64,000 nucleotides of DNA from an uncultured bacterium (GCA_964499705.1 CAZCME010000015.1:1-64000); one strand, 5' to 3'. Counted from the first letter of the stretch, positions 748 through 34,948 are shown. The notes: a model not told the origin generated them from the sequence alone. Translations and numbers: made by a program.

Positions 748-911
748 GGGCAATTGGGAATGTCTAATCTCACATGACAAGACGTTATCAGGTCGAGTCC
801 GACACCAGATTACCGAAAAAATATCACTGAGCGAGTCGAGTGGCAGCACTCATTTGCGCCCGCTTCTCAGTGCTTACCCTTGACGCACGTCGCGAAAATG
901 TGAATATTTCT

Positions 912-13140: not shown

Positions 13141-13585
13141 TGATTAACGACTACATCGTATCTTCGAGATGGGACGTTGACGGTTGCGCGCTCAAGGAGA
13201 GTATCGTAGTTAGTCGTGAAGACATCGGACCACGGCAACTTCATTAGGCTGACATGAAGTGGCGACGGCTCGTACTCCGTGTCGGGTATTTCGGATCTCA
13301 ATATTTGGTCTAACGCTGGTCTTCCGAAGGCGGCTTGAACTTCATCTGCAAGTTTCAGCAAACTCAAGTAGTGATCAGTGTCTTTAGGAGCTTGCCCGTG
13401 AATCTTCTTATAGAAGATATTTCCTAATTCCGCCCAATCGGGAATCCTCTTGGCGGACGGATCAGCTTTCCTTGCATTTTTGCTAAATCCGGCACCGACC
13501 ATCACTGCCGCATGGCCTGACCACAGCCGCCTTGCTACTTCGTCCAAAAATGGCTCCATTTTGCAAGGGAGAGGTGATGCGTCGT

Positions 13586-16599: not shown

Positions 16600-16606
16600 G
16601 GGGGTC

Positions 16607-16720
16607 TCATCTTAGAATCTCCCGGAAGGTCACGACTAGCCAGGTGCGGGCGCGAACGCGGATGATGTCGCCTTGCTTGGGGAGTTTGGTGGTGGGCTTG
16701 GATGCGGTTGTGGCGGGCAA
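16607..16720 (-). pseudogene. 37-codon remnant resembling the N-terminus of SNF2/DrmD-like helicases
   Basis: TTG-started frame just after the gmrSD-like stop: LPATTASKPTTKLPKQGDIIRVRARTWLVVTFREILR*. P..G.I.RVR.R.WLV resembles DrmD-type N-termini as I recall them. Confidence 0.4.
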
Positions 16721-16723
16721 GGA

Positions 16724-19345: not shown

Positions 19346-19415
19346 GGGCTTTCCTGCCTTTCTTCGTCAGCCGGTATTTCTGGAGGCGGCTGTTGGGTTT
19401 GTCGGGGATGATCAT
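19335..19415 (-). pseudogene. C-terminal remnant of a Fic-associated/winged-helix protein
   Basis: MIIPDKPNSRLQKYRLTKKGRKALGR* is the IPDKPxSRxQKYRLT tail typical of Fic-family proteins; the rest of the gene is absent. Confidence 0.65.
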
Positions 19416-19420
19416 ATGGC

Positions 19421-20323: not shown

Positions 20324-20937
20324 ACCGTGGCCTCGAGATATGGACGCATCACTTTCTCGACGCGGCAAATGCGAGCGTAGTGGAGGAGCTCGCCGGCGTT
20401 GAACTTCTTCCGCGCCTTATAGAACTTCAGCGCTTCGAGAACGATATCCAGTCCGAGCTTGTTCCGGAACTTGAAGCAGTCAGCGAGCGTTTTCTCGGGG
20501 GAGTAGATCCGGACGCGCACGCCATCGATGACATGAACCTGAACACCTTCGTTCAGGGCGGATTCGGCAAAGCGATGGACCGAGATCGGTGGATGAGCCA
20601 GGCGAGGAGTCTCCGCGCCCTTCTTCAGAGCGACCGAGACGGCATGCGGTATCTGCGTTGTGATGCCATGAAACGCCAGCGCGGAGATCAAGCAGATCAC
20701 GCCTTTGGGAACGCGCGATGCGACGGTGACCAGGTCGGGATTGGTGATCGGGCCGAACTCCGCGAGTCGATAGATGCCGCGCGAAATCTTCTCGAGATCG
20801 CCGGCCTCATGGAGGCGACAGAGGGTGCGGGGATGTATTCCGGCGGCGATGGCCTCGGCGGTGCGAATCATGCCGCTTCGCTTTTTGATGATCCGCAGAG
20901 CTTGGCTGGAATCGTGCGCCTGGGTTGCGGTGGTCAT
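20320..20937 (-). CDS. abiEi: AbiEi-family antitoxin / transcriptional regulator
   Basis: LEKISRGIYRL, GVICLISALAFHGITTQIP, YSPEKTLADCFKFRNKLG; coupled to the toxin gene. Confidence 0.92.
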   Translation of the reverse strand: MTTATQAHDSSQALRIIKKRSGMIRTAEAIAAGIHPRTLCRLHEAGDLEKISRGIYRLAEFGPITNPDLVTVASRVPKGVICLISALAFHGITTQIPHAVSVALKKGAETPRLAHPPISVHRFAESALNEGVQVHVIDGVRVRIYSPEKTLADCFKFRNKLGLDIVLEALKFYKARKKFNAGELLHYARICRVEKVMRPYLEATV

Positions 20938-21182: not shown

Positions 21183-22964
21183 CTACAGGGCGAGTCTCAG
21201 GCCGAGCAAAGCGACGGTCGAGATGATTCCGATGAAGGTCCGGAGGTCGTTCATGCCTTGTCTGCGGGGTTCGTCGGACTCGACGTAGACGGTCGAGTTG
21301 GCGGGGAGTGTGGGGTTGTCCTGTTTGCCGGAAGTGATTCGGGTGAGATCGTACGTGGTGGCGCGGCCGTCGGGGAATCGGACGCGGATCGCGCTCGTTC
21401 GGGATGTGTTCGTCACGCCGCCGGCGGAGGCGAGGACTTGGGTGAGGGTGCCGGGCTGGAACTGGCCGGGGGTCTTCACGTCGCCGATGACGGTCACGGT
21501 CTGCGGTGTGTCGGCCTGACCTGCGGCGGCAACTGGAAGACGCGGAATGAGCACGCGGTCGCCTTCGCGGAGGTCGGTGTCGGGATCGTGGCCGAGGGCG
21601 ATGTCGCGGGCGTTAACGGTGGCTGTGTCGCCGTGGCCGCGGTCGATTATGACGCTGGTGAGATCGGCACGGGTGTCTGGCTTGGCTTCCCGGACGGCGT
21701 CAGCGACGGTGAAGGCTTCGGTTGTGCCGGGATGTTGCACGGGGCCGTAGACCTGCACGTTGGGGACGAGTGCGCGAGCGCGGATCGGGATTGTGATGCG
21801 GTCGCGGTCGTCCAGTCTGGGGTCGTCAAGTTTTCCGGAGAAGATTGCCTGGACGTTGATGCGCACGGATGTTTCGGCACCTGAGCGGAATTCTACGTTT
21901 TCGAGGTCGGCTTCGGGGATTGGGCCGCCGGCGGCGGAGATGGCTTCGGAGAGAAAGAGCGCGGTGACCCAGTTCGGTTTCGATACGGCGCCGGAGACGA
22001 GGATTCTTGGGAGCGTGGGAACGACGATGATCTCGCCGCCCTGCAGTTCGATGTCGCGTTCGACGCCGGCCATGATTCTGGCGGCGTTGTAGAGCGTGGT
22101 GCTTTCTCCGGAGGTGATGCGGACTTCTGTGGGATTGGCTTCGTATGTGAATCCTTCGGCGGCGGAGATTGCGCCGAGGAGGGTTGTCGCGGGAAACGTG
22201 CCGGACTTCTTTACGGCACCCAGGACGACGGCGTTGCGCTGAATCTTAACCGGGGGTGCGAGGTAGAAGACGGTGACGGGACTGGCGGCGATGCCCTTCG
22301 CGCGGATCGTGGAGTCGAGGTCCGTGGTGGCTATTGCCGCGGTCTTGCTCGCGACACGAAAGACACCGAGGCCGCGGATGAGAATCTCGCCGTCGGGATT
22401 GATCGTGAAATCCTGTGTCTGGTTGCCCACAACAATTCGTATGCGATCACCTGGGGAGAGGACGTGACCGGCTACGGTCACGTCATCGAGGGGCGCGGCT
22501 CGCCGCGCCCCTTCTGCCTCGATTGTTGAGGCGGCGTTTCGAAATGCTGATTCGTCTATCATGGGCGAAAGGTCGACGTAGCGGATCTCCGCATTGCCGT
22601 TGCGGACCATCTCGATGTTTACGTCCTTGTCGCCGTGCATGACGAGTGCCACGGTGCGGCCGTAGCGATCTGTGGAATGCGCTTGATCGATGAGCACGGT
22701 GACGCGCTCGCTGAGGATCATTTGCTTCAGAGCATCCGACGATTCTTCGCCGCCCGGTTCGCCGGTGGGCTTGTTGTGCTCGGGGTGGGCGACCTCGGGC
22801 GCGTTGATTCCGGCGAGGCGGTAATTGATCCCATCTGCGCCCTTGAACGTGTCGCCGTCGTATATGAATTCGACGGCGACCGTTCTTCGCTCAATGTCGG
22901 CTTCGGCGCGAAGGTAGGATGGACTCGATATCTGAGCGATGAGTGCGAGGATGAGAAACGTCAT
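21183..22964 (-). CDS. Thermonuclease (SNase) fused to a Wza/OPX-like protein (Poly_export domain + 4 SLBB/beta-grasp repeats + C-terminal hydrophobic helix)
   Basis: Hydrophobic N-terminus; YDGDTF, RLAGINAPE, DRYGR, NIEMVRNG (SNase); LSPGDRIRIVV...INPDGEILIRGLG (Poly_export); four V.G.V..(P)G repeats. ATG 22964 overlaps the radA-like TGA. Confidence 0.82.
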   Translation of the reverse strand: MTFLILALIAQISSPSYLRAEADIERRTVAVEFIYDGDTFKGADGINYRLAGINAPEVAHPEHNKPTGEPGGEESSDALKQMILSERVTVLIDQAHSTDRYGRTVALVMHGDKDVNIEMVRNGNAEIRYVDLSPMIDESAFRNAASTIEAEGARRAAPLDDVTVAGHVLSPGDRIRIVVGNQTQDFTINPDGEILIRGLGVFRVASKTAAIATTDLDSTIRAKGIAASPVTVFYLAPPVKIQRNAVVLGAVKKSGTFPATTLLGAISAAEGFTYEANPTEVRITSGESTTLYNAARIMAGVERDIELQGGEIIVVPTLPRILVSGAVSKPNWVTALFLSEAISAAGGPIPEADLENVEFRSGAETSVRINVQAIFSGKLDDPRLDDRDRITIPIRARALVPNVQVYGPVQHPGTTEAFTVADAVREAKPDTRADLTSVIIDRGHGDTATVNARDIALGHDPDTDLREGDRVLIPRLPVAAAGQADTPQTVTVIGDVKTPGQFQPGTLTQVLASAGGVTNTSRTSAIRVRFPDGRATTYDLTRITSGKQDNPTLPANSTVYVESDEPRRQGMNDLRTFIGIISTVALLGLRLAL

Positions 22965-24730
22965 TGCAGATTTCTTCTCGCCGGCTCGGTCGCCTTCGAC
23001 GACACGCAGTCGTTCCATACTTTGTGTAGCTGATACGCCTTTCGGATGCCGACGTTGAGCTGCCTTCGGAGAAGGTCGGGCGTGACATCGTGGTGGCGTT
23101 GAACAAGCTCGGCGATGCGCGCAATCAGCGGGTCGATGGGTGGACAAGCTGGGCGAGTGGGCGGTAGTGGGGCAGGCGGAATGATCGCCGGCGGTTCTGG
23201 AATCTGAACGGGTGCGCTTTCTGGCTTCGGTTTCTCCGGTTCGACTGGCGACTTCAATTTCCTGATCCTCTTCGAGTGCTGTTTACGCTTCGTGTCCTTC
23301 TCGAGAGATTTCGCTTTTGCCTCGATGGACTTGGCTTTGGACTGTCGCGTTTCTTTTGGACGACCAGACTCGCTTTGCTCGATTGGGAATTCGATGGCGC
23401 GTAAGGCATCGAGGAGAGTCTTCGCGCGAAACGTCGTGAGCTTCGCGCTCGGGGGGAGCGCGTCGCTGCCGATGTGAGGGACGATGACGTTCTGGATTCC
23501 GAGGATCTCGAGTTCGCGGTAGCGCGAGACGAAGTCGCGCGGCGGTAGAAGTCTTCCGTCGAGCGCTACTTCGCCGATTGCTCCCCAGCTTGTGGGCATG
23601 GGCATGGCTTTGACCGCGTGTGCCGTTGCGATCGCGACGGCGAGATCGGCGGCGGAATCCGAAATCTTGTAGCCGCCCAGGACGGTGAGCGCGATGGTGT
23701 TCGGAGCCTTGATGCCGTATCCGTCGAGGATTGTCTGGATGAGTCGGAGCCGCTCCTTCGGGTAGCCGACCACGGCTTCGGAGAGATCGCCGCGTTGGAG
23801 AAATCCGACCTGAATCTCGGTCGCGATGGGCTTCGTGCCTTCCATCGCGACAGCGATGATGCCCTTCCCGCCGCCTTTCAGAATCTCGGCACCGGGGCTG
23901 GCGACTTCCTCGATGCCGTGCGAGGTCATGCGAAAACTTCCGACCTCCTCCTTCGAGCCGAAGCGATTCTTTTCGACACGGAGGAGGATGAAACCGGGGA
24001 GGGTCATCTCGTCGAGGTGAAAAACGGCATCGTATAGATGCGGGACGGACATGGGGCCGGCGAACTCGCCGGTCTTCACGATCTGGCCGGCGACAAGAAA
24101 TGGTATGCCGGACATTTTCGCGAGCTCGACTATCTTGGCGGAGACTTCTTTGACCTGGGCCGGACTGCCGGGCTCGTTGTTGCAGGATTTCGTGCGCATT
24201 CGCTGAAGCGAGTCAATGATGACGATTACGGCCTTGAGCGCATACATCTCGTGGACGGTTTCCTCGAAACCTTTGTCCGCGAGGATGAATAGTTTGGGAT
24301 CTCGCGCATCGATACGTTTCGATCTCGCCGCGGCTTGCGGGAGCGATTCTTCCGCGGAGACGTAGAGCACGGGGCCGTGCTTCTCGGCGATGCGCGAGGC
24401 GATTTGCATGAGCATGGTGGACTTTCCGACTCCGGGTGCGCCCGTGAAAATGACGGCGGATCCCTCGCAGATGCCTCCTGCCTCGGGCGGTCCGCCGAGA
24501 ACGCGGTCGACCTCGGGGTAACAGGTCGAGATGCGCGGAGGATCTTTGACGTCGGCGTCACTTACCGAGAGCGCCGGCATTCTCGGCGCAACCCGATGCA
24601 TTGTCTGCTCGGACTCCTCGACGCGAATCTCGCTCGGATCGAGCCACTTGCCGCACGCGGGGCAACGGGGGAAGTATTCGGACTCCTGGTGCCCGCAGGA
24701 CGGACAGGAGTAGATGGCGCGGTTGCTCAT
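22961..24730 (-). CDS. radA: RadA/Sms-family ATPase with a Lys/Pro-rich linker and FtsK-gamma-like C-terminal winged helix
   Basis: CPSC...CPAC Zn finger, GAPGVGKST, YVSAEES, IIDSLQ, KNRFG signature, Lon-like ADLAVAIA...GEVALDG; extra tail DPLIARIAELV...LLRRQLNVGIRKAYQL. Confidence 0.85.
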   Translation of the reverse strand: MSNRAIYSCPSCGHQESEYFPRCPACGKWLDPSEIRVEESEQTMHRVAPRMPALSVSDADVKDPPRISTCYPEVDRVLGGPPEAGGICEGSAVIFTGAPGVGKSTMLMQIASRIAEKHGPVLYVSAEESLPQAAARSKRIDARDPKLFILADKGFEETVHEMYALKAVIVIIDSLQRMRTKSCNNEPGSPAQVKEVSAKIVELAKMSGIPFLVAGQIVKTGEFAGPMSVPHLYDAVFHLDEMTLPGFILLRVEKNRFGSKEEVGSFRMTSHGIEEVASPGAEILKGGGKGIIAVAMEGTKPIATEIQVGFLQRGDLSEAVVGYPKERLRLIQTILDGYGIKAPNTIALTVLGGYKISDSAADLAVAIATAHAVKAMPMPTSWGAIGEVALDGRLLPPRDFVSRYRELEILGIQNVIVPHIGSDALPPSAKLTTFRAKTLLDALRAIEFPIEQSESGRPKETRQSKAKSIEAKAKSLEKDTKRKQHSKRIRKLKSPVEPEKPKPESAPVQIPEPPAIIPPAPLPPTRPACPPIDPLIARIAELVQRHHDVTPDLLRRQLNVGIRKAYQLHKVWNDCVSSKATEPARRNLQ

Positions 24731-25818
24731 TCGCTTCCATCGCCTTGTCTGTGCTCCGAGGTTGTGACGGTCAGCTGGCCGTGGAGGACGAAAATGCCGC
24801 GCGAGAAGAGCGCTGCGCGGAACCGCTCCGCAGTGCAGTACGTGATGACGATCTCGTTCGCGTCTTTGCTTCTCGACTTGATCAGGACCGTGGGAAACTC
24901 CTCCGATGCGGCGAGGTAGTTCTCCTCGCGCTGGTCTTCGTCGAGTGGTTCCGTCACGAGAAGCCCGGTGACAATGGCGCTGTCCGGAATTTTGTCAGCG
25001 ATCTCATCCACGAGCAGGTGGTCGATCTCGACGTGGCTCGACTTTCTCGTGATGGGGCGAGCGCGCTCTACGAGGATGCGGTCGAGGGTGACGGACGGTG
25101 ACGACGTGCCGGTCGTGAAGACGGCATCGCCTCTGGCGAAGTAGAGCGTGGACTGCTCCACGGCAACGACACGGAATTTCTCCTCGTAGTCGGTGGGGAG
25201 AAGTGTGTCGCGCCAGGTGCCGCGGATCTTGGCGGTGAGTTCGTAGTCGGGGAAGAAGCGACGGGCCTCGCGGGAGGCGGAATACACGTCGCGCGTGAGA
25301 AGGTAGAAGCTCGAGCGCAAACCCATGACGGAGATCGGCGTAAAAGCGGTCGTGACGAGGAAGAGGAGAGCGCAGAGGATGAACTCGGGGACGCTGCCGA
25401 CGTTGATGCGGTAATCCTCGGACGCGGGAAAGACCCAGCGGGCGCGGTGCGGCCAGAAGAGTGGAACGCCGGGGATATTCGCCATGTCGATCAAGATGTG
25501 CGAGAGAACGCCGAACCATGCGGCGAGGTAGTAGAGAAGGCCCCATCCGATCCAGAGCGGTATGAAGAGGAAGAGACACGCGACTAAAAAGACCCACGAG
25601 TGCGTCACAGTGCGATGGCCGAGTTTTCGCTCGAGGAACTGCGGGATGCCGGTGAAGTAGAAGAGAAATCCGATGGTTGAGCGTGGGTGGTCGATGTCGG
25701 GGAGAAGTGAACCGATCGCGGCAAGAGCGAGCGCGGTGCCGTCCATCTCGAACTCGAAAGACGAGCACGCGAATTCGGCGGTGAGCAGGCCGAAGGGAAT
25801 GTGAGTGATCGAGGTCAT
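24727..25818 (-). CDS. YdjM-like inner-membrane metal-dependent hydrolase with a C-terminal soluble domain
   Basis: TH, GSLLPDIDH, HRTVTHS, SHILID and GVPLFWP motifs with several TM segments. Confidence 0.85.
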   Translation of the reverse strand: MTSITHIPFGLLTAEFACSSFEFEMDGTALALAAIGSLLPDIDHPRSTIGFLFYFTGIPQFLERKLGHRTVTHSWVFLVACLFLFIPLWIGWGLLYYLAAWFGVLSHILIDMANIPGVPLFWPHRARWVFPASEDYRINVGSVPEFILCALLFLVTTAFTPISVMGLRSSFYLLTRDVYSASREARRFFPDYELTAKIRGTWRDTLLPTDYEEKFRVVAVEQSTLYFARGDAVFTTGTSSPSVTLDRILVERARPITRKSSHVEIDHLLVDEIADKIPDSAIVTGLLVTEPLDEDQREENYLAASEEFPTVLIKSRSKDANEIVITYCTAERFRAALFSRGIFVLHGQLTVTTSEHRQGDGSE

Positions 25819-26711
25819 CAGTTACTTCTCGATGTCCGCATCATGAACCAGCGGACGAGGAGCATCATTCCGGAGAGCGCTCCGAAGATGGCGTACATGT
25901 CGAACTGGTACATGCCTCGGTTTATGTAGCGCATGATGATGAGAAATGCGAAGAACGTAAGGATGAGCGGCGCTGCGTCGAAATACGAATTGCCGGACCG
26001 ATGAACGAAGAGTTCACGGATGTAGGACTTGTCGATTCGCTCGGCGCCGCGGAGGCGGTCGGCGGATTCGACGATAGCGCTCGGGACTCCGCTCGAGAGC
26101 GTGGCAATCTGGTTCAGGAGAAAATCCTTCGTGCCCTTGTCGATGGGTTTCACGCCAGGGACGGTCTGTATAACGTGCGCGGCCAAATCGCGCGCGTGCT
26201 GAGGCGAGAGCGGGTTCACGATGACCTCGTCGAAGCGCCAGAAGAGGCGGTTGAATCTTGGATGCCTGTGGCGGTTTCGCGCGGCGGCGATGATCGCGAC
26301 TTTCTCGGCGAGAACCTCGATGACGGGGACCGCGAGGACGGGAAGCTGATCGAATTCGTCGAGGAGGAGAACGACTTTCTTGCCGCTCATCTGCGGGAGC
26401 GCGAGAATTTCAGCGATCATGTGGCCGAGTTCCACTATTCGTGTGGCGTGTCCGACCTTCCGCGGCTTTGAGACGCCGGCGGTGATGCAGAGCCAGGAGT
26501 AGATCGAGTCGATGATCTCCTTTGCGGGCACGGGACGGCGAACGTAGTGAATCGCTGTGTCGGTCTTCTTGATCTTGCGCTGAAGGTCGAGGAGGAGATG
26601 GGTCTTGCCGATACCGTTTCTTCCAATGAGCAAGGTGTGGTGCCCCTGCATGGTGTTCCGGAGCAAAGTCTCGATCTCGTTATCGCGACCGATGGTGGCA
26701 TCGAGGATCAC
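25818..26711 (-). CDS. AAA+/P-loop ATPase with two C-terminal transmembrane helices
   Basis: IGRDNE, GRNGIGKT Walker A, LLLDEFD Walker B, SSGVP; hydrophobic tail. Confidence 0.8.
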   Translation of the reverse strand: MILDATIGRDNEIETLLRNTMQGHHTLLIGRNGIGKTHLLLDLQRKIKKTDTAIHYVRRPVPAKEIIDSIYSWLCITAGVSKPRKVGHATRIVELGHMIAEILALPQMSGKKVVLLLDEFDQLPVLAVPVIEVLAEKVAIIAAARNRHRHPRFNRLFWRFDEVIVNPLSPQHARDLAAHVIQTVPGVKPIDKGTKDFLLNQIATLSSGVPSAIVESADRLRGAERIDKSYIRELFVHRSGNSYFDAAPLILTFFAFLIIMRYINRGMYQFDMYAIFGALSGMMLLVRWFMMRTSRSN

Positions 26712-27730
26712 GAGTCGCTCTTTGGTGAGGTGCCGACGGATACCGTGAAGTACGCGGCGGGTTTGCCGGGCTCGTGGACGTAGATCGGGATCGAGTAGAA
26801 ATCCTGTGGCTTGGTGAAGACGACTTCGAATGTGACCGTGTCGCCCTGGCGAAGGTCCTGACCGAGGACGAGGACGTTGGCCTGCACGTATCGATACTGC
26901 GTACCTTCCTTGTCGGTGCGGGAGACGGGGCGGAGGAGAAATCCGTCGACGCGCACTTCGACGGATTTCTGCGAGGTGACGGTGAGCAAGTGGGTGGCGG
27001 GGTTGTACGTTGCCGCGATACCCGGTGGCGCGGGTTCAGCGGTGGATGCTCCGGACTGTGCGACGGCAGCAACTCCATGCGTGGTCCCCGCCACCCGCTC
27101 GCTTCCACCGACGGTGCCGGAAGTTCCGGCCCCCTGGAAAGAGCGCGTGGCGCGTTTGGTCTGACCGTCTTCGATCCACTCGAACTGAACCGAAAAGTTG
27201 TCGGCGGGAAGTTCGATGGTTTGGTTTGGGGCGAGAGTGCCGATCAGGCGATAACGCGGCTTCGTCACCTCGAGATTGATCGCGGGCACGTCGCCGGCAT
27301 TCGTGAGCTTGCCGTTTTGCACGACGATGAGCGGGCGACCGTTGTTCTGGCTTGCACCGGGCATAAGCGTCGTGAGGTCGATCTCGCTTCGCGCGACATG
27401 GGCGGTGATGATCGCGGCGAGGAAGATCGTGGCGGCGATGACGGTGACGCGGATCGGAGGCGCGGATGTGGCGGCGCGAGTGAGTTTCGCTGTCCACACA
27501 CACACGGATTTCGCGAGCACGCGTAAAAATCTCGTAATTAATGAGTCCGGAACTGGTGCGGCATGAGTTACGAGCGGTATGGAATAGGGCGTCTTGACGG
27601 TCGACCTGCGCGCTTCACGGAATTCCGGATCATCGAGTGGAATCTCAACGACAGAGACTGCGCGTGCGTGGGGCGTGCCGGATGAGCGCACGCTCGTGGC
27701 GACGCGCTGGCCGTAGATCATTCGACTCAT
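26708..27730 (-). CDS. Single-pass membrane protein of unknown function with beta-rich extracytoplasmic domains
   Basis: TM segment VTVIAATIFLAAIITAHVA; ATGA/GTGA overlaps with both neighbours. Confidence 0.7.
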   Translation of the reverse strand: MSRMIYGQRVATSVRSSGTPHARAVSVVEIPLDDPEFREARRSTVKTPYSIPLVTHAAPVPDSLITRFLRVLAKSVCVWTAKLTRAATSAPPIRVTVIAATIFLAAIITAHVARSEIDLTTLMPGASQNNGRPLIVVQNGKLTNAGDVPAINLEVTKPRYRLIGTLAPNQTIELPADNFSVQFEWIEDGQTKRATRSFQGAGTSGTVGGSERVAGTTHGVAAVAQSGASTAEPAPPGIAATYNPATHLLTVTSQKSVEVRVDGFLLRPVSRTDKEGTQYRYVQANVLVLGQDLRQGDTVTFEVVFTKPQDFYSIPIYVHEPGKPAAYFTVSVGTSPKSDS

Positions 27731-28380
27731 GGTGTGAGTCGATTCGCGCGGAGCACTTCGATCACGTCTCGCCATGCCGCATCGGCTGATTTACCATCCG
27801 CGCCGGCGACGGCGACCGTGAGTCCTATGTCGATCGGCTTGCCGTTTCCGGGCGTGACGAGACAGACGGATTTGGCGATTCTGTCGGAGATCTCCGCGGC
27901 ACTCTCCGTGTCCGAATTGCGGAGTATAAGACCGAAGATGCCAGGATCGATACGGGCGAGGTCATCGCCTGTTCGTATGGCCGAGAGAAGCGAGGCCGCG
28001 AGATTCTTCACGACGATGTCTCCTCGCTGCGCGCCGAATCGAATGTAGATCCCCTCAATGTCGAATGCGAACGCGGCGATGCTGATGAAGAAGCGATGGC
28101 TCGCGGTTGCGATCTCGGCGGCCAGACGGTGGAAGAAGAATGCTCGACTTTTTGTCTGCGTGAGCGGGTCGATTGCATTCTCGCGGCGGATGTTCTCGAC
28201 GATGGGACGGAATATGCGAGTGAGGTCGATGTTGCGCCGGGGATCGGCGAGAATCGCGGCGTCAAACGCTACGCCGAGGCACTCCGGGCAGATGAAGACG
28301 ATGAGTTCTCCCGCTTCCACGACGCGCGCGTCAGTGACCGCGCCGCACGAGAGCGGGCATGTATGACGAAGAAGGCTCAT
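27727..28380 (-). CDS. Zn-finger plus degenerate GGDEF-domain protein (I-site retained)
   Basis: CPLSC...CPEC; DPLT, FDIE, G...GD; RTGD I-site followed by DLARIDPGIF in place of GGDEF. Confidence 0.8.
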   Translation of the reverse strand: MSLLRHTCPLSCGAVTDARVVEAGELIVFICPECLGVAFDAAILADPRRNIDLTRIFRPIVENIRRENAIDPLTQTKSRAFFFHRLAAEIATASHRFFISIAAFAFDIEGIYIRFGAQRGDIVVKNLAASLLSAIRTGDDLARIDPGIFGLILRNSDTESAAEISDRIAKSVCLVTPGNGKPIDIGLTVAVAGADGKSADAAWRDVIEVLRANRLTP

Positions 28381-28664
28381 TGAAGAACCATCCCGACGAT
28401 CCAATTATCTGTGAGGGGCGACCGTTTTCGATGTAGCCGGACGATTACAGCGCCGTGTGTCTCGCCGTGAAGGGTAAGCGAGATCGGCGCGCGTAGATCT
28501 TCGACAGTCCATGACAGGAACGCGGGATCATGGATTCGGACAGCGCAATTTGTCGCGGAGAAATCGAGGAGATTGCCTTTGCACCGCTTGTCGCCGCGCG
28601 TGAGTTTTACGAGCGCGAGCGATGATGTCCTCATCCGCACGGAGACGCGATCGCGGCGGATCAT
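28377..28664 (-). CDS. PilZ-like small protein (divergent motifs)
   Basis: 95 aa; N-terminal RRDRVSV, GNLLDFSATNCAVRI (DxSxxG-like with N), AVIVR and terminal WIVGMVL follow the PilZ barrel pattern; ATGA-coupled on both sides. Confidence 0.55.
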   Translation of the reverse strand: MIRRDRVSVRMRTSSLALVKLTRGDKRCKGNLLDFSATNCAVRIHDPAFLSWTVEDLRAPISLTLHGETHGAVIVRLHRKRSPLTDNWIVGMVLQ

Positions 28665-29287
28665 CCGTCCCTCCTGCGCCAGTCGGGGGCGCTCCAGGTG
28701 AGCCGAAGGCCTTCGCAAAGTCGCGAGAGGGCGCGGGGATACCGTTCCTCGAAGGCGGCCATGTCGAGATTTGTGGCGATGAGCGTGGGGAGCCGCCGGC
28801 GGTATCGCTGATCGAGGATTCGGTCGGCGAGTTCGCGCGTCCAGTCGGACCGACCCTCGGCCCCGAGGTCGTCGAGGATGAGGAGGTGCTGATACTCGCC
28901 AAGGTTGGGCACGATGGCGCCGTGGTCTGAGATCGCGTTACGGTGCCGTTCGACGAGGTCCGGATGATACCAGTACCAGACCTCCTTTCCGGACTCGATC
29001 CAGCTCGTTGCAAAGGCGAGGAGGGCGTGGGTCTTTCCTGAACCGAAGTTCGTTTTGCCTCGGTCTGAGTGGAGAAAGGCACTCCACTCCGCGAATCTCC
29101 ACGTCCGGAGCATCGGTGTCTGCTCGCGGAGTTCGAGAATCTCCTGCCACGTCGCCCAGGTGCAATTCTCGCGGCCGGCCTGCGCGGCGAGTCGGTCGAG
29201 CAGGCATTGCTTGCACCGTCGGACAGACTCACGTCCCTGCGGATCCTTGGTGTAGAGCCAGCCGCTCATGCATCCGTGTTCGGTCAT
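28661..29287 (-). CDS. DnaC/IstB-like ATPase (helicase loader)
   Basis: N-terminal Cys/His, FGSGKTHA, LLILDDLGAE, RYRRRLPTLIATN; GGAGG RBS; follows the replication initiator. Confidence 0.85.
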   Translation of the reverse strand: MTEHGCMSGWLYTKDPQGRESVRRCKQCLLDRLAAQAGRENCTWATWQEILELREQTPMLRTWRFAEWSAFLHSDRGKTNFGSGKTHALLAFATSWIESGKEVWYWYHPDLVERHRNAISDHGAIVPNLGEYQHLLILDDLGAEGRSDWTRELADRILDQRYRRRLPTLIATNLDMAAFEERYPRALSRLCEGLRLTWSAPDWRRRDG

Positions 29288-30291
29288 GATTTCCTCCTCG
29301 TCGATGGATGCGGGAAGGTCTTGAGGACCGCCCCTGATTCGATGTCGTATTGCTCGCGCATGAGCTGGCCGTCGATGAGCCGGTCGCGGATGTCGGTCTT
29401 TCTCTGAGGGGCCGATGGCGCGGCGCATTCTCTCCGACCGCTTCTCGTCGAACTCGGCCTGCCGCTGTCCTGTTGAGTCGTGAGCCAGCTCGTGACGAAG
29501 CGGCCGATGCCCGCGGCGGTCTTCCGGCGTTTCGGGTTGCCGATGAGCCACGCGCGCATTTTGCCAAGCTCGTGTCGAACATCGACGCCGGGGAAGGCTT
29601 TCTCCATCTCGGTGATGAAGTCTTCGGTGACAGGCGCTTCCTTGTCGCTTGTCAGCGGGAGCATCACGACGATTTCGCCGGTGCATTGTGTAGCGGGCTT
29701 GACTCCTCCATGTCGCTTCAGTTTTGCCACTTGTGCAACCGGCTTGGAGGAATCGCCACTCGTCGGCGATCCCTCCGAGCTACCAGATTCCTGCTCCTGT
29801 TCTTGCTCCTGCTCCTGCTCTTTAACCCCCTCAGGTGCGGGTGACCTCGTTTCGACACGTGGGGGGACAGGTGTCGGGGAGTAGGATTCGAAGATCCCGT
29901 GCAGGTGCCGGGACAGGTGCGCTGTATTGGCGAAGAAGTGGCTGAGGAGATGCGTCGATGGCAGGTCGTGGAGGTCGTTCAGGCAGTTCTTGAAGACGCT
30001 GGGGTTCTCCGGCGCGTTGTACTTCCACCAGGTGGGGATGTAGAGGACGCGGAGTTGGTTGTCGAAGCGCCATTCGAAGGTCCGGCAGACCTTGTCGAAG
30101 AAGAGGAGGAAGACGTTCGGCTCGAGGTTCAGGTCCTCGGCAGCGAGTGCGGGAGAAAAGTTGAAGAGGCCGATGCGATTGGATTGCGCGGTGAAGGCGT
30201 AGATCGCGACCAGCTTTTCGATGTGATCCAGCTTGCGGATGTTCTCGTCACGCCACATTCGGGGATCGATCTTTCGGTATCGCTGAGCCAT
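29284..30291 (-). CDS. Phage-type replication initiator protein
   Basis: MAQRYRKIDPRMWRD N-terminus, WWKYN, EQEQEQEQE linker, C-terminal ELGKMRAWL..NP.RRKT..GI.RF..SWL domain; directly upstream of the DnaC-like gene. Confidence 0.8.
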   Translation of the reverse strand: MAQRYRKIDPRMWRDENIRKLDHIEKLVAIYAFTAQSNRIGLFNFSPALAAEDLNLEPNVFLLFFDKVCRTFEWRFDNQLRVLYIPTWWKYNAPENPSVFKNCLNDLHDLPSTHLLSHFFANTAHLSRHLHGIFESYSPTPVPPRVETRSPAPEGVKEQEQEQEQEQESGSSEGSPTSGDSSKPVAQVAKLKRHGGVKPATQCTGEIVVMLPLTSDKEAPVTEDFITEMEKAFPGVDVRHELGKMRAWLIGNPKRRKTAAGIGRFVTSWLTTQQDSGRPSSTRSGRRECAAPSAPQRKTDIRDRLIDGQLMREQYDIESGAVLKTFPHPSTRRKS

Positions 30292-30292
30292 C

Positions 30293-31060
30293 TCAGTGGT
30301 CCGGCTTCGCCACGACGCGCTTTGCGCGTTCTTCGTCCGTGAGGTCGCCGGCGTAAACGGATGTCGCGCGGCCACGATCCTTCGCGGCGTAGAGCGCGGC
30401 ATCGGCGAGATCGAAAATGCGGTCGTGGAGTTCGATGGCGTCGTCAGGAGGAGTCTCGCCGAAGTCGGGCGGATACGAGGAGATGCCGCATGAAACATTG
30501 ATGCTGCTCTTCAGAGATCGACCCGTGATCGCGTGGAATTGGTATTCGGACGTTTCCTTCACGATGCGCTCGGCAATGGCTTTGGCGCCGACGACATCGG
30601 TCTCGGGGAGGATGAGGCCAAACTCGTCGCCTCCGACGCGGGCGGCGCAATCGCTCTTACGGGTGAAGTGCGCGAGGAGTTCTCCGAACTCCTTCAAGAC
30701 GAAATCACCGGTTGCGTGGCCGAAATCGTCGTTTGCGGCCTTGAAGCCATCGAGGTCCATGAGGACGAGCGAGAGAAAGTGCGAGCCTTTCGCGCGAGCG
30801 AGCTCGGCGGTGAGTTGCCGATCGAAGAACTTGCGATTGCCGAGGCCTGTGAGTTTGTCGATGTACGCGCCCTTCTCGATCTGGCGGATGCGGCCGAGGA
30901 GTGTGGTCATGAACTGATCCGCGGGCATTCCGCGCTCGGCGACGATGCCGATGACGGCCTGCGACGGAAGCCAGATTCCGAGGCATGTCTGGCAGATGTC
31001 GAAGTTGACGGACGCGATCTTCTGCGTCTCGATCGGCACACGACAGCAGGGACAGTCCAT
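30293..31060 (-). CDS. zf-TFIIB-like Zn finger plus diguanylate cyclase (intact GGDEF)
   Basis: CPCC...DICQTCLGIWL; DKLTGLGNR, DLDGFK.AND.FGH.TGD, RKSD I-site, ARVGGDEF, ADAALYAAK. Start at 31060 or 31111. Confidence 0.92.
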   Translation of the reverse strand: MDCPCCRVPIETQKIASVNFDICQTCLGIWLPSQAVIGIVAERGMPADQFMTTLLGRIRQIEKGAYIDKLTGLGNRKFFDRQLTAELARAKGSHFLSLVLMDLDGFKAANDDFGHATGDFVLKEFGELLAHFTRKSDCAARVGGDEFGLILPETDVVGAKAIAERIVKETSEYQFHAITGRSLKSSINVSCGISSYPPDFGETPPDDAIELHDRIFDLADAALYAAKDRGRATSVYAGDLTDEERAKRVVAKPDH

Positions 31061-31070
31061 CAGACGCGTT

Positions 31071-31433
31071 TCACTTCGCTGGCGGCGTTTCGGTTTCATC
31101 GTGTGATCCATTTCGTTCGGCGACCAGTTTTTCGACGACGGCGCCGACCTTCTCGCGGATGTCGGAGGCCTGAAGGACCTGACCGCCGCGGAGCTCGTTC
31201 ACCTTGTCGCGGAGGTAGAAGTGCGCGAGAACCAGGTCCCGGTCTTTACTGTCCCATGCGTACGGATCGGCCTCGACGTATGCGTCATCGTCGATCGCGA
31301 TCATGTAGAGACCTTCCGTAGTGATGCCGACATCGGCGGTGCGATCGTCGGCGAGTTTTGCAAAGTTGATCGGGATGAGCGCGACGAGATAGTGGCGATC
31401 GCCGGTCTCGAGGCGGAAGTGTTTTACGCGCAT
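31071..31433 (-). CDS. Hypothetical protein (120 aa)
   Basis: Protein-like ORF that fills its slot in the operon. Confidence 0.65.
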   Translation of the reverse strand: MRVKHFRLETGDRHYLVALIPINFAKLADDRTADVGITTEGLYMIAIDDDAYVEADPYAWDSKDRDLVLAHFYLRDKVNELRGGQVLQASDIREKVGAVVEKLVAERNGSHDETETPPAK

Positions 31434-31798
31434 GGGGAGCTTCGATCCTCGAAGAGTGAGGACTGGCGTGGAAGGGCTACGCTCTGGCGGAACGCGGTTT
31501 CGAGGGCTTTGAGTCGCTCGCTCAGCGCGACAATGCGCGCGGTGAGTTCGTGCCGCGCGGCTTCGAATTCCGCTTCGTTTGCGATGATGAAGTAGCCGTT
31601 TACGGGATCCGCGCCGATGGGCACTCGATGAGTCTTGATGAGCGCCTCGATGGTCTCGCGCAGGCGACGGTTGGGGAGATCGAGTTTTTCCTGAAGAGCT
31701 TTGCCGCCGATGCCGTTTCCGGAACCGGTGTGGTCTCTTTGCAGGGCGGAGAGGACTGCATCCTCGTTGGGCGTGAGCTTCATGTGTCTGTCATCCAC
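31424..31798 (-). CDS. Winged-helix DNA-binding protein of phage/satellite type
   Basis: HTG..NGI..KAL...L....RRLRETIEAL.....PIGA....GYFI pattern followed by a coiled-coil tail. Confidence 0.7.
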   Translation of the reverse strand: MDDRHMKLTPNEDAVLSALQRDHTGSGNGIGGKALQEKLDLPNRRLRETIEALIKTHRVPIGADPVNGYFIIANEAEFEAARHELTARIVALSERLKALETAFRQSVALPRQSSLFEDRSSPCA

Positions 31799-32045
31799 GT
31801 TTCTTCGCGGGTTTCTTCAGGGCCGCCGGCGTGTGATCAGGCCTATCGTCGGGATCGAACGGGAGCTTCTCTTCGGGGGTCGGGCTGTCAGACGGCGGAA
31901 TCGGGAGCGCGATTGCGATCCGGACTTCCTGGTCGACGAGGTCGGCGAGAAGCGAGATGTCGGGCGGGGAGATGTCGAGCACGGCCTGCATTCCGGAGTC
32001 TGTGATCTCGAGGCTCTTGATGATCGCGGGGAACGAGAAGGTCAC
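31791..32045 (-). CDS. Hypothetical protein (84 aa)
   Basis: GTG start overlaps the upstream TGA; stop overlaps the next gene. Confidence 0.6.
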   Translation of the reverse strand: MTFSFPAIIKSLEITDSGMQAVLDISPPDISLLADLVDQEVRIAIALPIPPSDSPTPEEKLPFDPDDRPDHTPAALKKPAKKRG

Positions 32046-32197
32046 GGTGTTCTCCGGCGGTAGTGGCGCCGGCGGTCGACTCGGCGACGGTCGCCGTATC
32101 GCCGGCGGCCGTGTTCGAGCATTGTGATGCGATGCCGGCGGTTGGCGGTGCCTCGTCGCTCTTGAGTGCGGCGCTCGCCGGTGCGTCGGCTATTCAT
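32042..32197 (-). CDS. 51-aa arginine-repeat peptide (not in the ORF track)
   Basis: MNSRRTGERRTQERRGTANRRHRITMLEHGRRRYGDRRRVDRRRHYRRRTP*; GGAGG RBS at 32205-32209; ATGA overlap upstream and GTGA overlap downstream. Confidence 0.7.
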   Translation of the reverse strand: MNSRRTGERRTQERRGTANRRHRITMLEHGRRRYGDRRRVDRRRHYRRRTP

Positions 32198-32370
32198 TTG
32201 GCCGCCTCCGTCTGGAATTCGACTTCACGGGCAAGACGGAGGAGGCGAGCCCACGCCCAGAGGCAATCGGGGGAGGAGGAGTAGACGACGCCTTTGGGCA
32301 ATGTCGGTTGGGAAGCGGCGTCATTCCGGACATCGGCGGCTCGGTCCGTGTTGGGCTGATCGTCAAGCAT
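32194..32370 (-). CDS. Hypothetical protein (58 aa)
   Basis: ATG 32370 with AGGAG RBS, overlapping the cro-like stop. Confidence 0.55.
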   Translation of the reverse strand: MLDDQPNTDRAADVRNDAASQPTLPKGVVYSSSPDCLWAWARLLRLAREVEFQTEAAK

Positions 32371-32653
32371 CGCGTCTCCTTCGCGCCTGCGGACGATCAC
32401 GGCGGGGGAGATTTGGCCGTGCGCTGGATTGCTCGGACCAGCGGCAACCCGCTTCGGTGAACATTCGGGGGAATAGAACGTAGGGAGGCACACCGAGAGC
32501 TTTGGCGATGCGAAGTGCGGTAGCCGGTCTGGTATGGGCGCGAGCTTCAATCCTGGCAATTCCACCGCGAGTGAGGCCCACGCGGCGTGCCAGTTCCCCA
32601 AGCGACCATCCCTTGGCGAGGCGGATTTCTTTCAGTGGTTCTTTCAGTTCCAT
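32363..32653 (-). CDS. Cro-like XRE helix-turn-helix regulator
   Basis: LKEIRLAKGWSLGELARRVGLTRGGIARIE...IAKALGV; first gene of the long operon. Confidence 0.85.
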   Translation of the reverse strand: MELKEPLKEIRLAKGWSLGELARRVGLTRGGIARIEARAHTRPATALRIAKALGVPPYVLFPRMFTEAGCRWSEQSSARPNLPRRDRPQARRRRDA

Positions 32654-32762
32654 ATCAATTATGAATGACAGATATGAACTACAAATTAGCATTCTGTCAA
32701 CATTAGATTTCATACGCGTTATTTGTGTTGACAAACGTTGACAAACCGCTACATTTCCACTC
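32654..32762. promoter_or_regulatory. Divergent promoter/operator region of the switch
   Basis: AT-rich; TTGACA on the minus strand (32695-32700) and twice on the plus strand (32728, 32738, in a tandem GTTGACAAAC repeat); TACATT at 32750-32755, 7 nt before the ATG. Confidence 0.7.
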
Positions 32763-33158
32763 ATGAAAGTCATCGAGTTTCTCAAGCAGACGTTAAAGGA
32801 CTGTGACAAGCCTCAATACGAGGTGTGCAATAGCGTGAACGTCGCGCAATCGACGCTCAGCCATGTGATGCGCGGGCGCAGCGATCCCAGACTGGACACC
32901 TTTGTGAAGCTTGGTGGTCCGCTCGGCTACGAGGTGCAGGTCGTCACAAGGAAGGCGGCCTTCATGCTCGGGATCAAGGGAGGCAAGGCGGATCTTGTCG
33001 AAGAAAATAGCAGGCGCAAGGAAACTCGATTGGAACGGCTCGCGACCTTCTACTCACGGCGATTATCTCCCCTGGAGCTCGAAGGCTTGTGCGAGGAGCT
33101 GGAGATGCGCGCAGATCACATCGACAAACAAAAAAAGCGCGTCGCGAAAGCGAGCTAA
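32763..33158 (+). CDS. XRE-family HTH repressor (CI-like, no peptidase domain)
   Basis: QYEVCNSVNVAQSTLSHVMRGRSDPRLDTFVKL; divergent from the cro-like gene and upstream of the integrase. Confidence 0.8.
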   Translation: MKVIEFLKQTLKDCDKPQYEVCNSVNVAQSTLSHVMRGRSDPRLDTFVKLGGPLGYEVQVVTRKAAFMLGIKGGKADLVEENSRRKETRLERLATFYSRRLSPLELEGLCEELEMRADHIDKQKKRVAKAS

Positions 33159-33323
33159 CCCCTTGGACGCCCACGCTGATCCTGGGCGGCAAGCCGGAAT
33201 CGGCACCGGTGCTCGAACTTGCGAAGCCGCGAAAGCCGCGAAAACGTCGGTCCCCTTCGGTGCCGGCGATCAGCAATCCGGAATCTGGTCCGGTGATATG
33301 CACTGATCCGGGAGGGTCGAACT

Positions 33324-34907
33324 ATGAATAAGAAATCAGAGGAGAACGCGGAAGGCGTTATTATGCCGCCCGAACGTCGCGCCATCATCTACTGTCGCGT
33401 CTCGACGGAAGAGCAGGCCAAGGGCGGCATCTCGATCGAGATGCAGATGGAAAAATTGCACCACCTTGCGAAAGTTCACGACCTCACTGTCACCGAAACC
33501 ATCTGTGACGCCGGCGTCTCAGCGAAAAACCTCCATCGCAAGGGAGTCGAGAAAGCGCTTGAACTTGTGCGCGAAGGCCATGTCTCGCATCTCCTCATCT
33601 ATAAGCTGGATCGCCTCTCGCGTTCCATTCGAGATATCGGCGTGCTCATCGACCTCTTTCAAGAAAAGGGAGTGGCTCTCATCTCAGCAACCGAAAGTAT
33701 CGACACTGCTTCGCCAATGGGGCGGATGATCTGCAACATCCTCGGGTCGTTTGCGCAATTCGAACGTGAACTTATCGCGGAGCGGACGCGTGATGCTATG
33801 GAGCAACTTTGGAAGGCCGGTCGCTGGACAACGCGCGCTCCATTCGGATACATCTTCGATGATAATCGCCGGCTACTCCCGCATCCGGAGCAGGCTCCAC
33901 TGGTGCGCGAGCTATTCGAGCGAACGGCCGATGAACGACTGACGACGAGAGACGCATTTCACTCGGTTATCGACGACAGCCGCTACACTGCGGCGCGAAA
34001 GTGGAACAAGTCTGGTGTTTACTTCGTCCTGACATCTCGCGTTTACCTGGGCGAGGTGAAGCGAGGCAAGAAGTGGGGGCGCGGGATGCACGACGGTATC
34101 ATCGACGCCGAACTCTTTGATCGTGTTCAGGGTCAGCTCAGCGCGCGCAACAATATCGGGACGATTACGCGCGGACTCTCCGCGAATGTGCTGGCGGGTA
34201 TCGCGGTGTGCGGGCATTGCGGCCGGAAGCTAATCGCACGAACCGGGCGCAGGAAAGGTTCGAAGACCGACAAGGATCGTCAGACCGCGCGCTACGCTTA
34301 TTACGTCTGCCCAAGTTCTGCGGATCGAAAAGACTGCGTGCTTGCGCCGGTTCCAGCACCTGCAATCGAGGAGGCGATCTTCTCCGAGATGGCGAGCATC
34401 GGGCAGAACCGGGCCTTGGTGGCTGCCATCGTTCGTGATGCTGAAACGTTGCTCGAGACCAGAACTCGCGGCGAACGGGTCGAGATCAAGACGGCGCGCC
34501 GGCGACTCACGCTTCTCGAGAAGAAAGTTCGCGTCGTCATGGATCACCTTTCGGAGATTCCTCCGAGTGATCCGCGCGCCAAGGAATTCACGACCGAGCT
34601 CGATCGGTTGAGCGCGGAGAAGGACTTGGTGAGCAACCGCGTCAGCGAGATCGAGGCACAGCTCTTCACGAAGCGCCGCGACCGGATGAACGTGGATCTG
34701 CTGGTCTCCCTGCTGATGTATCCCAGGCTCTACCTGCCGAAGCTGAACGGGAAAGACCTGCGTGAGGTCATGAAGGGGATCATCCACAAAGCGACGATCT
34801 GGAGCCGTGAGGAGATCGAAATCGAGGTCGCCGTGCCCGCAGGCTCGCGCGGGGTTATGATGGCGTCCAATGGAGCGTCCCCAACGGGATTCGAACCCGT
34901 GTTTTAG
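33324..34907 (+). CDS. Large serine recombinase (integrase)
   Basis: IYCRVSTEEQ catalytic Ser, KLDRLSR, FAQFERELIAERT, APFGY, CGHCG Zn ribbon, coiled coil; GGAGG RBS; last codons read antisense through the tRNA. Confidence 0.95.
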   Translation: MNKKSEENAEGVIMPPERRAIIYCRVSTEEQAKGGISIEMQMEKLHHLAKVHDLTVTETICDAGVSAKNLHRKGVEKALELVREGHVSHLLIYKLDRLSRSIRDIGVLIDLFQEKGVALISATESIDTASPMGRMICNILGSFAQFERELIAERTRDAMEQLWKAGRWTTRAPFGYIFDDNRRLLPHPEQAPLVRELFERTADERLTTRDAFHSVIDDSRYTAARKWNKSGVYFVLTSRVYLGEVKRGKKWGRGMHDGIIDAELFDRVQGQLSARNNIGTITRGLSANVLAGIAVCGHCGRKLIARTGRRKGSKTDKDRQTARYAYYVCPSSADRKDCVLAPVPAPAIEEAIFSEMASIGQNRALVAAIVRDAETLLETRTRGERVEIKTARRRLTLLEKKVRVVMDHLSEIPPSDPRAKEFTTELDRLSAEKDLVSNRVSEIEAQLFTKRRDRMNVDLLVSLLMYPRLYLPKLNGKDLREVMKGIIHKATIWSREEIEIEVAVPAGSRGVMMASNGASPTGFEPVF

Positions 34908-34948
34908 CCTTGAAAGGGCCATGTCCTGGGCCTCTGGACGATGGGGAC
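34876..34948 (-). tRNA. tRNA-Glu (anticodon TTC); CCA not contiguous
   Basis: GTCCCCATCGTCCAGAGGCCCAGGACATGGCCCTTTCAAGGCTAAAACACGGGTTCGAATCCCGTTGGGGACG: 7-bp acceptor stem, CTTTCAA loop, GTTCGAATC T-loop. Confidence 0.95.

Follow-up and report, generated by a model that had tools for sequence, protein, structure and literature searches.

A predicted diguanylate cyclase and two candidate c-di-GMP receptors encoded among the replication genes of an integrated mobile island at a tRNA-Glu gene

Diguanylate cyclases encoded by mobile elements have been described before. DgcK and DgcL of the SXT/R391 ICEs (integrative and conjugative elements), as well as Dgc137, Dgc139 and Dgc140 of a Vibrio alginolyticus genomic island, are active enzymes that can alter host traits controlled by cyclic di-GMP (c-di-GMP) and are described as cargo (PMC10672970). 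Proteins with a degenerate GGDEF domain that bind this messenger at the RxxD motif of the inhibitory site (I-site) are also on record, PopA of Caulobacter and PelD of Pseudomonas among them, and PopA ties c-di-GMP to the control of replication initiation through degradation of CtrA (PMC12564702). Here we describe a locus found in 64,000 nucleotides (nt) of DNA from an uncultured bacterium (GCA_964499705.1, CAZCME010000015.1:1-64000; this whole stretch is the window in what follows), where a predicted cyclase, a DnaD-like replication initiator, a DnaC-like helicase loader, a PilZ-fold protein of 95 amino acids (aa) and a degenerate GGDEF protein of 217 aa are encoded one after the other. As in the SXT/R391 and V. 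alginolyticus cases, a GGDEF cyclase is carried by an integrated mobile element; unlike those cargo cyclases, however, this one is a conserved core gene placed 1–4 nt before the initiator, its protein begins with a zinc ribbon, and the element also encodes two candidate receptors. Our preferred reading, in which we have moderate confidence, is that these genes form a c-di-GMP signalling unit of the element's own, embedded in the main operon that runs leftward in an integrated mobile element at tRNA-Glu.

The minus strand carries all five genes, none of which is interrupted by an internal stop. The stop codon of the cyclase gene occupies positions 30295-30293 and the ATG of the initiator is at 30291, which leaves a gap of exactly 1 nt. 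An ATGA overlap then joins the initiator stop to the loader start, the start of the 95-aa open reading frame (ORF) sits in another ATGA overlap with the loader stop codon, and the degenerate GGDEF gene starts in the ATGA overlap at 28380 rather than at a TTG at 28404. From the initiator through to an exporter-like gene further downstream, in fact, all eight junctions are overlaps, seven of them of 4 nt (six ATGA and one GTGA) and the other of 1 nt. Because every junction in this series is an overlap, the genes are probably made together; the pattern is that of a single operon, and translational coupling within it is possible. The first-pass annotation of this DNA had placed an intact zinc-finger cyclase, with RKSD and GGDEF motifs, 1 nt before the initiator ATG, and a PilZ-like ORF followed by a degenerate GGDEF protein (RTGD kept, DPGIF for GGDEF) directly downstream of the DnaC-like loader. 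Both statements hold on reading of the junctions and on the Pfam matches and alignments reported below, and the coordinates and overlaps likewise bear out the co-orientation and tight linkage of the c-di-GMP genes with the replication genes.

The 255-aa protein encoded ahead of the initiator has a GGDEF domain that matches Pfam PF00990 at E=4e-40 (137.7 bits against a cutoff of 23.8) and NCBIfam TIGR00254 at 129 bits (cutoff 37.4), while its N-terminus matches Zn_ribbon_TFIIB at E=7e-6 (25.7 bits, cutoff 22). The resulting architecture consists of a four-Cys zinc ribbon, a helical linker, and then the GGDEF domain with its RKSD I-site and an intact GGDEF. Upon alignment to the GGDEF domain of WspR and to another solved cyclase, the D-x-D, Lys, Asn and Asp positions, RxxD and GGDEF are all kept; the catalytic and I-site roles given to these residues are those known from work on PleD and WspR. 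A database search returned 24 orthologue clusters (E at or below 7e-72, 49–100% identity), the next matches being generic cyclases at 1e-27, and the start at 31060 (MDCPCC) matches the starts of the orthologues. In an alignment of 24 rows, made up of the window protein and 23 orthologues, there is no variation in the GGDEF motif, in the I-site residues R134 and D137 or in the second pair of Cys, and the upstream metal- and GTP-binding positions (D-x-D...K...N...D; 24/24) are invariant too. The zinc-ribbon Pfam label is carried by 14 of the 24 orthologue clusters and by none of the 96 other listed hits. No orthologue was found in the phage collection by tblastn, where the matches were only generic GGDEF sequences, all below 60% identity and at most about 42% among the 10 records listed of 106. 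We regard the 255-aa protein, on the strength of its sequence, as an intact-looking diguanylate cyclase of the active type, and synthesis of c-di-GMP as its predicted activity.

The 217-aa protein is also recognized by the Pfam GGDEF model (E=1e-11, 45.3 bits against 23.8). Its zinc ribbon falls below the Pfam cutoff (E=0.033), but the four Cys are nonetheless invariant in its family, which counts 19 members with 38–100% identity and in which CPLxCG...CxECLG and RxGD do not vary. The I-site RxxD, which reads RTGD here, lies five residues before the active site (A-site), with R136, G138 and D139 invariant in 19/19 members; the Arg of an "IAxRI" helix, which we take to be the second I-site Arg, is invariant as well. 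At the A-site the family has (E/D)-P-x-x-F instead of GGDEF, the window protein having DPGIF, and in a profile alignment to the solved cyclase 4zmm (chain residues 45-204) GGEEF is replaced by EPDVF/DPGIF, and three further residues are lost, namely the Lys, the Asn and the first of the Asp residues that bind metal. When compared to the cyclase of the same element, identity is 32% from the ribbon onward (E=9e-15), and this similarity, extending from ribbon to GGDEF domain, makes the two proteins paralogues of one architecture, one live and one dead. Pfam identified no extra output domain in the dead paralogue. Relatives of it were found by tblastn neither in the phage collection nor in plasmids, where the 8 records listed of 36 were all generic cyclases at no more than about 30% identity, and a pattern scan of genome contigs with the family alignment matched 175 stretches, none of which is a relative. 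The protein is, on these motifs, a catalytically dead GGDEF and a candidate c-di-GMP receptor via its RxxD. Like PopA and PelD, it combines a dead A-site with an RxxD kept five residues upstream. The additional domains are different, however: two receiver domains in PopA, transmembrane and GAF domains in PelD, but no more than a linker and a four-Cys zinc ribbon in the 217-aa protein, which is, moreover, encoded by a mobile element.

That the 95-aa ORF is a real, conserved gene is indicated by its homologues. Three close ones share 76–91% identity with it, and an exhaustive profile search of 1.84 billion representatives added four further small ones, with E-values between 8e-34 and 2e-8 and none of them fused to another domain, which brings the members found to only 8. 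Two giant SpaA-repeat proteins that also matched the family profile (E of 3e-4 and 7e-4) look spurious, and we attribute these matches of beta-rich sequence to chance. The PilZ sequence model (PF07238) does not claim the window protein as a member; P0146, the most distant protein of the family, reaches 20.7 bits with Pfam PilZ against a cutoff of 22.5, and the top PDB sequence match of the window protein, the CeSA PilZ domain, is non-significant (E=0.6). In spite of this, a model obtained with AlphaFold2 from the 8-sequence alignment (pLDDT 85) has a disordered N-terminal tail followed by a beta-barrel, and a Foldseek search of the PDB with this model put PilZ proteins at the top (PP4397 with c-di-GMP, MapZ, MrkH, MotI, PlzA, BcsA and YcgR). 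Entries containing PilZ make up 9 of the 10 top rows, with TMq of 0.60-0.67 and E-values of 1e-3 to 6e-3; for the proteins named here the probability is 1.00 and E-values extend to 1e-2, and none is at or below 0.001. An independent model from the ESM Atlas gave PilZ clusters in 6 of 10 rows (TM 0.66-0.77). A previous AlphaFold2 model, built from 4 close sequences, was unusable (pLDDT 41) and was superseded by the 8-sequence one. The PilZ fold of this protein is well supported as a prediction, even though membership by sequence fails, and the agreement of the two models, by Foldseek and Atlas, is in line with the first-pass annotation, which had called this ORF PilZ-like.

The motifs through which PilZ domains bind c-di-GMP are RxxxR and (D/N)xSxxG (PMC12564702). 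The first is found as R6xxxR10 in the window protein, and in 7 of the 8 family members. Similarly to stand-alone PilZ proteins (MapZ/PA4608, PA0012, the C-domain of PP4397 and those of the XAC1133 type), the 95-aa protein is predicted to be a small six-stranded barrel with an Arg-rich, flexible N-terminal tail (TMq of 0.59-0.67 for the fold matches), and about 24 residues separate its RxxxR from D-x-S; unlike them, it remains below the Pfam threshold and has Asn for the motif Gly. In Xanthomonas, a PilZ protein bridges FimX and PilB as a non-binding adaptor, and by analogy the 95-aa protein may be such an adaptor. A complex prediction for the dead GGDEF protein and the PilZ-like protein, run without controls, gave a score of 0.00 and a mark of 0.32, and speaks neither for nor against binding.

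Relatives of the three c-di-GMP genes appear to occur together. Eight of the 10 contigs above 5 kb that carry a dead-GGDEF gene are equal in size to the contig of a cyclase orthologue (99556 nt, which is the window's own, 8283, 11654, 32351, 57537, 8432, 15110 and 5907 nt), and two (54630 and 15353 nt) are without a size-matched cyclase. All three close PilZ homologues are on contigs with sizes (8283, 11654 and 32351 nt) that are common to cyclase and dead-GGDEF hits. With conserved relatives of all three genes elsewhere, apparently on shared contigs, the arrangement is more than chance. We also obtained a tree of 74 rows, in which every third generic hit was used (32/96) and two sequences were omitted, namely P0023, which duplicates the window protein, and the fusion P0046. 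The cyclases form two clades, with supports of 83 and 95, and the dead-GGDEF partners fall into matching groups, a 12-row clade (support 98) and the rest; such a congruent split suggests that cyclase and dead paralogue were already travelling as a pair before these clades parted. The dead paralogue may have arisen by duplication of the element's cyclase; in this tree it sits on a branch 4.0 long, and three groups meet at one node.

The sole cyclase orthologue from a public assembly, P0039, led us to contig CAZJQD010000015.1 (L001), where the proteins of the window are matched in the same order from the 120-aa ORF through the exporter-like gene, minus the PilZ/dead-GGDEF pair (identities in Table 1). 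There, 4 nt separate the stop codon of the cyclase from the ATG of the initiator, and initiator and loader are again joined by an ATGA overlap. Since P0039 is nested in the tree among cyclases that do have dead-GGDEF partners, the absence of the pair from L001 is most simply, and probably, a loss. A third view of the locus comes from P0046, a predicted protein in which the cyclase runs into the N-domain of the initiator, and cyclase and initiator are adjacent in all three places where this could be read (the window, L001 and P0046). The integration module of L001 (L001 3447-8882) lies beside a tmRNA gene and encodes a tyrosine integrase, together with a protein of 467 aa in which a Gp3-like recombination-directionality domain is recognized. 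With an integrase and an insertion site that differ from those of the window, the same core operon is seen to be paired with a different integration module. The cyclase is, by these gene comparisons, an ancestral and core gene of the element family. The candidate readers, in turn, are accessory, because L001 keeps cyclase, initiator and loader without them, and are dispensable for replication and for the downstream block; the pair is old but dispensable, and its members would be modulators rather than parts of the replication machine. It had been proposed in the first-pass annotation that c-di-GMP times the element's own cycle or pushes the host to a sessile state. Either may be so, but L001 counters a strict replication timer.

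Table 1. Features of the leftward operon and of the adjoining regulatory and integration region, in window coordinates, with protein identity to the counterparts in L001.
Feature	Position	Strand	Basis or remark	Identity in L001
Three small upstream ORFs (84, 124 and 120 aa)	31071..32045	-	Mutual overlaps of 8-10 nt; 124-aa ORF with PHROG 2113 match, function unassigned there	84-aa ORF, weak; 120-aa ORF, 59%
Zinc-ribbon GGDEF diguanylate cyclase (predicted), 255 aa	30293..31060	-	Pfam GGDEF and Zn_ribbon_TFIIB	60%
DnaD-like replication initiator / replisome organiser, 335 aa	29284..30291	-	PHROG 1701	
DnaC/IstB-like AAA+ helicase loader, 208 aa	28661..29287	-	Pfam IstB_IS21, PHROG 50	56%
Stand-alone PilZ-fold protein, 95 aa	28377..28664	-	Predicted fold	
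Degenerate zinc-ribbon GGDEF protein, 217 aa	27727..28380	-	Pfam GGDEF; DPGIF for GGDEF	
340-aa protein, one hydrophobic helix	26708..27730	-	No family match; ATGA overlap with the dead-GGDEF stop	51%
AAA ATPase with hydrophobic C-terminus	25818..26711	-	Pfam/NCBIfam	55%
YdjM-like membrane hydrolase	24727..25818	-	Pfam/NCBIfam	69%
RadA/Sms-like ATPase	22961..24730	-	Pfam/NCBIfam	57%
SNase and Poly_export/SLBB exporter-like protein	21183..22964	-	Pfam/NCBIfam	68%
Divergent helix-turn-helix (HTH) regulator pair, resembling a cro/cI-type switch	32363-32809; 32763-33158	-; +	Pfam HTH_3 2.9e-12 and 1e-4; PHROG repressors	
Large serine recombinase	33324-34907	+	Pfam Resolvase 2e-41, Recombinase, Zn_ribbon_recom; PHROG 95 integrase 7e-101	
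tRNA-Glu	34875-34948	-	ARAGORN and Rfam; marks the right end of the island	

The assignment of the initiator derives from PHROG 1701 (DnaD-like, 4e-17), as Pfam returned no match to it, and that of the loader from Pfam IstB_IS21 (4e-7) and PHROG 50 (DnaC-like, 4e-23), with partial matches to DnaI/DnaC-type models of NCBIfam. The C-domain of the initiator shares 43% identity by tblastn, and 40% by BLASTP, with its L001 counterpart (L001 10809-11951), but the N-domains of the two differ and are unrelated, which looks like a domain swap through which origin specificity was perhaps altered. Both proteins carry an acidic linker of repeated dipeptides, which is (EQ)n in the window initiator and (QD)n in its L001 counterpart. 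A search for iterons or tandem repeats around the initiator gave nothing convincing except the hexamer repeat that encodes (EQ)n. The overall arrangement, with a divergent HTH switch, a leftward DnaD/O-like initiator and DnaC-like loader, and an ATGA overlap, is reminiscent of the lambda-type O/P early operons of temperate phages and satellites. Unlike these, however, the island has no structural, lysis or packaging genes in the 35 kb of it that the window contains, and conserved envelope/DNA-handling and defence blocks are found instead.

The five genes that follow the dead GGDEF gene (window 21183-27730, minus strand; L001 12581-18951) are kept in the same order in both loci at 51–69% identity. 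No match to the 340-aa protein, which is membrane-anchored, was obtained with Pfam, PHROG, NCBIfam or PADLOC, and an Atlas search with it was uninformative (scores of 0.78 at most, TM of 0.29 at most). The exporter-like protein, which resembles Wza, combines a signal peptide with SNase, Poly_export and SLBB domains and ends in a hydrophobic helix. The block as a whole might be an envelope-spanning device for DNA handling or export.

At the right end of the island, the last 33 nt of the recombinase ORF lie within the 3' end of tRNA-Glu, so that about 11 C-terminal residues are encoded by tRNA sequence, and housekeeping genes (dapA, lysA, argH, argG and his) are found to the right of the tRNA gene. 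A direct repeat of the tRNA end, of at least 12 nt, was found nowhere else in the window, and the left end of the island lies outside it. To the left of the operon are genes for AbiEi/AbiEii, GmrSD, a type I restriction-modification (R-M) system, a Dsr2-like SIR2 protein and a deaminase, with the defence cargo at 4338-20937. No relaxase or type IV secretion system (T4SS) domain was detected in the 27 island ORFs scanned, and neither the Pfam scan of island ORFs nor the PHROG scan of 16 ORFs in 21183-34907 revealed phage capsid, portal, terminase, tail or lysis genes; the phage-like features of the island are limited to integrase, repressors and replication proteins. We consider this an integrated mobile island at tRNA-Glu with a phage-like switch and replication module, and possibly an ICE. 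Of the parts of an ICE (an integrase next to an insertion site, a relaxase, a coupling protein and a T4SS), the first is provided by the serine recombinase at tRNA-Glu, and an ArdC-like gene that runs off the left edge indicates that the island continues beyond the window.

Several other observations were made in the window. Between the divergent HTH genes there is a perfect tandem repeat, GTTGACAAAC x2, at 32727-32746, which overlaps a TTGACA/TACATT promoter-like site of the plus-strand regulator and may be an operator. The ArdC-like anti-restriction protein (ArdcN and zincin-like metallopeptidase domains) is encoded at 2-691 on the minus strand and its gene runs off the left edge of the window, which hints that the island extends to the left and may be transferred as single-stranded DNA. 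In 840-4322 (plus strand), a gene for a cytidine/deoxycytidylate deaminase-like protein (840-1652) is followed by one for an 846-aa protein without a Pfam, NCBIfam or PADLOC match. The Dsr2-like SIR2 gene (8430-13589, minus strand), nested between type I hsdM and hsdS, is apparently split into a 187-aa ORF (13026-13589) that corresponds to profile positions 6-148, and a 1526-aa ORF (8430-13010) that corresponds to positions 142-1220 and matches from residue 428 onward only, with about 427 residues unmatched. Two tandem full-length hsdM genes (N6_Mtase and HsdM_N domains) occupy 13586-16599 on the minus strand, with a 4-nt overlap. Other genes seen in the window encode a host protein of 3124 aa (43827-53201, minus strand), with seven Beta_helix/NosD repeats and fn3 and Ig-like domains, and a CsgG-like protein (59556-60560).

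In the signalling unit that we propose, the operon would be switched on, presumably by the cro/cI-like switch upstream, and the zinc-ribbon cyclase would dimerise and make c-di-GMP, its own RxxD I-site limiting the output. Two proteins would bind this locally made c-di-GMP, the dead paralogue by means of its invariant RxxD and the PilZ-fold protein by means of RxxxR and DxS, and they would relay the signal to operon partners, be they the replication proteins or the envelope/DNA-handling block, or else tune the cyclase, and surplus c-di-GMP would also reach host effectors. A number of our findings weigh against this proposal. The 95-aa protein has no match in Pfam even at E<=10, and its second motif reads D34-F-S36-A-T-N39, with Asn at the canonical Gly of DxSxxG; across the family this motif keeps D/N in 8/8 members and Ser in 6/8, but Gly in only 1/8, and with Asn for the motif Gly the binding of c-di-GMP by this protein is uncertain. 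In L001 the PilZ and dead-GGDEF genes are absent altogether, the loader being followed after 3 nt by the homologue of the 340-aa protein, and of the 13 cyclase contigs above 5 kb, five are without a dead-GGDEF partner, L001 verified and the others perhaps truncated. The sharing of contigs by homologues, moreover, was inferred from identical nt sizes of the contigs that gave the protein hits. A scan for consensus promoters and terminators inside the operon returned nothing above shuffled controls. Lastly, no phosphodiesterase was found, and turnover of c-di-GMP must then depend on the host. No EAL or HD-GYP domain was detected in the 46 ORFs scanned (short ORFs and some gaps were outside the scan), which is consistent with the first-pass annotation, and apart from the writer and the dead paralogue no other GGDEF, EAL or HD-GYP gene is in view, nor was a c-di-GMP riboswitch found. 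That annotation had also called the module self-contained, a term that amounts only to a negative result, the lack of a phosphodiesterase among the scanned ORFs.

The history of the reader pair can also be understood in a different way. Loss of the pair with retention of the cyclase, as in L001, is what one would expect of a modulator over an essential effector, and the dead paralogue could serve to regulate the cyclase, through a heterodimer lacking one half-site or through an I-site cross-link, and together with the PilZ protein soak up the product, so that the c-di-GMP pulse is limited or shaped and the host is spared. GGDEF enzymes require two active protomers, the dead protein shares with the cyclase the ribbon-linker-GGDEF layout at the identity given above, it is without an extra output domain, and the two co-diverge in the tree; all of these points suit a brake of this kind. 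On the other hand, two replication genes separate the cyclase from its dead paralogue, and the invariance of RxGD and of other surface residues (W203, for example) is equally expected of a true receptor, and we regard the brake as an unlikely account. The cyclase could otherwise be plain cargo that manipulates the host, as in SXT/R391 elements, by raising global c-di-GMP, with biofilm increased and motility or pili decreased, in which case its adjacency to the initiator would be meaningless and the PilZ-like and dead GGDEF proteins would be non-binding adaptors. Cyclases of mobile elements that alter biofilm and motility are in fact documented (PMC10672970), and the degenerate PilZ motif (G to N), the lack of a Pfam PilZ match, and the missing reader pair of L001 would all fit. 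Real cargo, that is the defence genes at 4338-20937, is located elsewhere in the island, however, whereas the cyclase stands inside a conserved core operon of overlapping genes at both loci, despite different integrases and insertion sites, and RxGD stays invariant in all 19/19 dead paralogues, even at 38% identity, which speaks for ligand binding having been kept. This explanation, too, seems to us rather improbable.

Given that the island holds type I R-M, Dsr2-like SIR2, GmrSD and AbiE genes, one could also imagine the three genes as a conflict system, in which defence or counter-defence signalling by the nucleotide triggers growth arrest on phage attack. PADLOC, however, recognizes none of the three proteins, no nuclease, pore or NADase domain is linked to them, and they reside in the replication operon, outside the defence block; we find this explanation very hard to credit. 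Returning to the signalling unit that we prefer, it can be taken further, to propose that c-di-GMP is a private signal of this hitherto undescribed integrative-element family. The core cyclase would fire upon induction of the operon, and the element's PilZ and dead-GGDEF receptors would gate the replication proteins or the AAA/YdjM/RadA-like/nuclease-exporter block, which could be an unrecognised apparatus for DNA handling or export, so that the messenger directly times replication or transfer. We consider this extension distinctly doubtful.

Our literature search retrieved no description of a cyclase, a PilZ protein and a dead GGDEF protein within the replication operon of a mobile element. 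Cargo cyclases of mobile elements are already known, and degenerate GGDEF I-site receptors and PilZ receptors are textbook matter; what is new here is a cyclase as a conserved core gene just before the initiator, a zinc-ribbon architecture common to live and dead GGDEF paralogues, and a writer with two candidate readers in one mobile-element operon. These results point to an island family so far represented by one public metagenome-assembled genome (L001) and by metagenome-derived protein records, with a conserved envelope/DNA-handling block to which a function is yet to be assigned. Until now, mobile-element cyclases have been viewed as cargo with effects on the behaviour of the host. In both loci read here the cyclase is a conserved core gene beside the initiator, and most relatives encode candidate receptors along with it. 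If these receptors do bind c-di-GMP and act on their operon partners, the locus would be a compact and transferable form of local c-di-GMP signalling, with one writer and two readers, and would tie c-di-GMP into a mobile element's life cycle.

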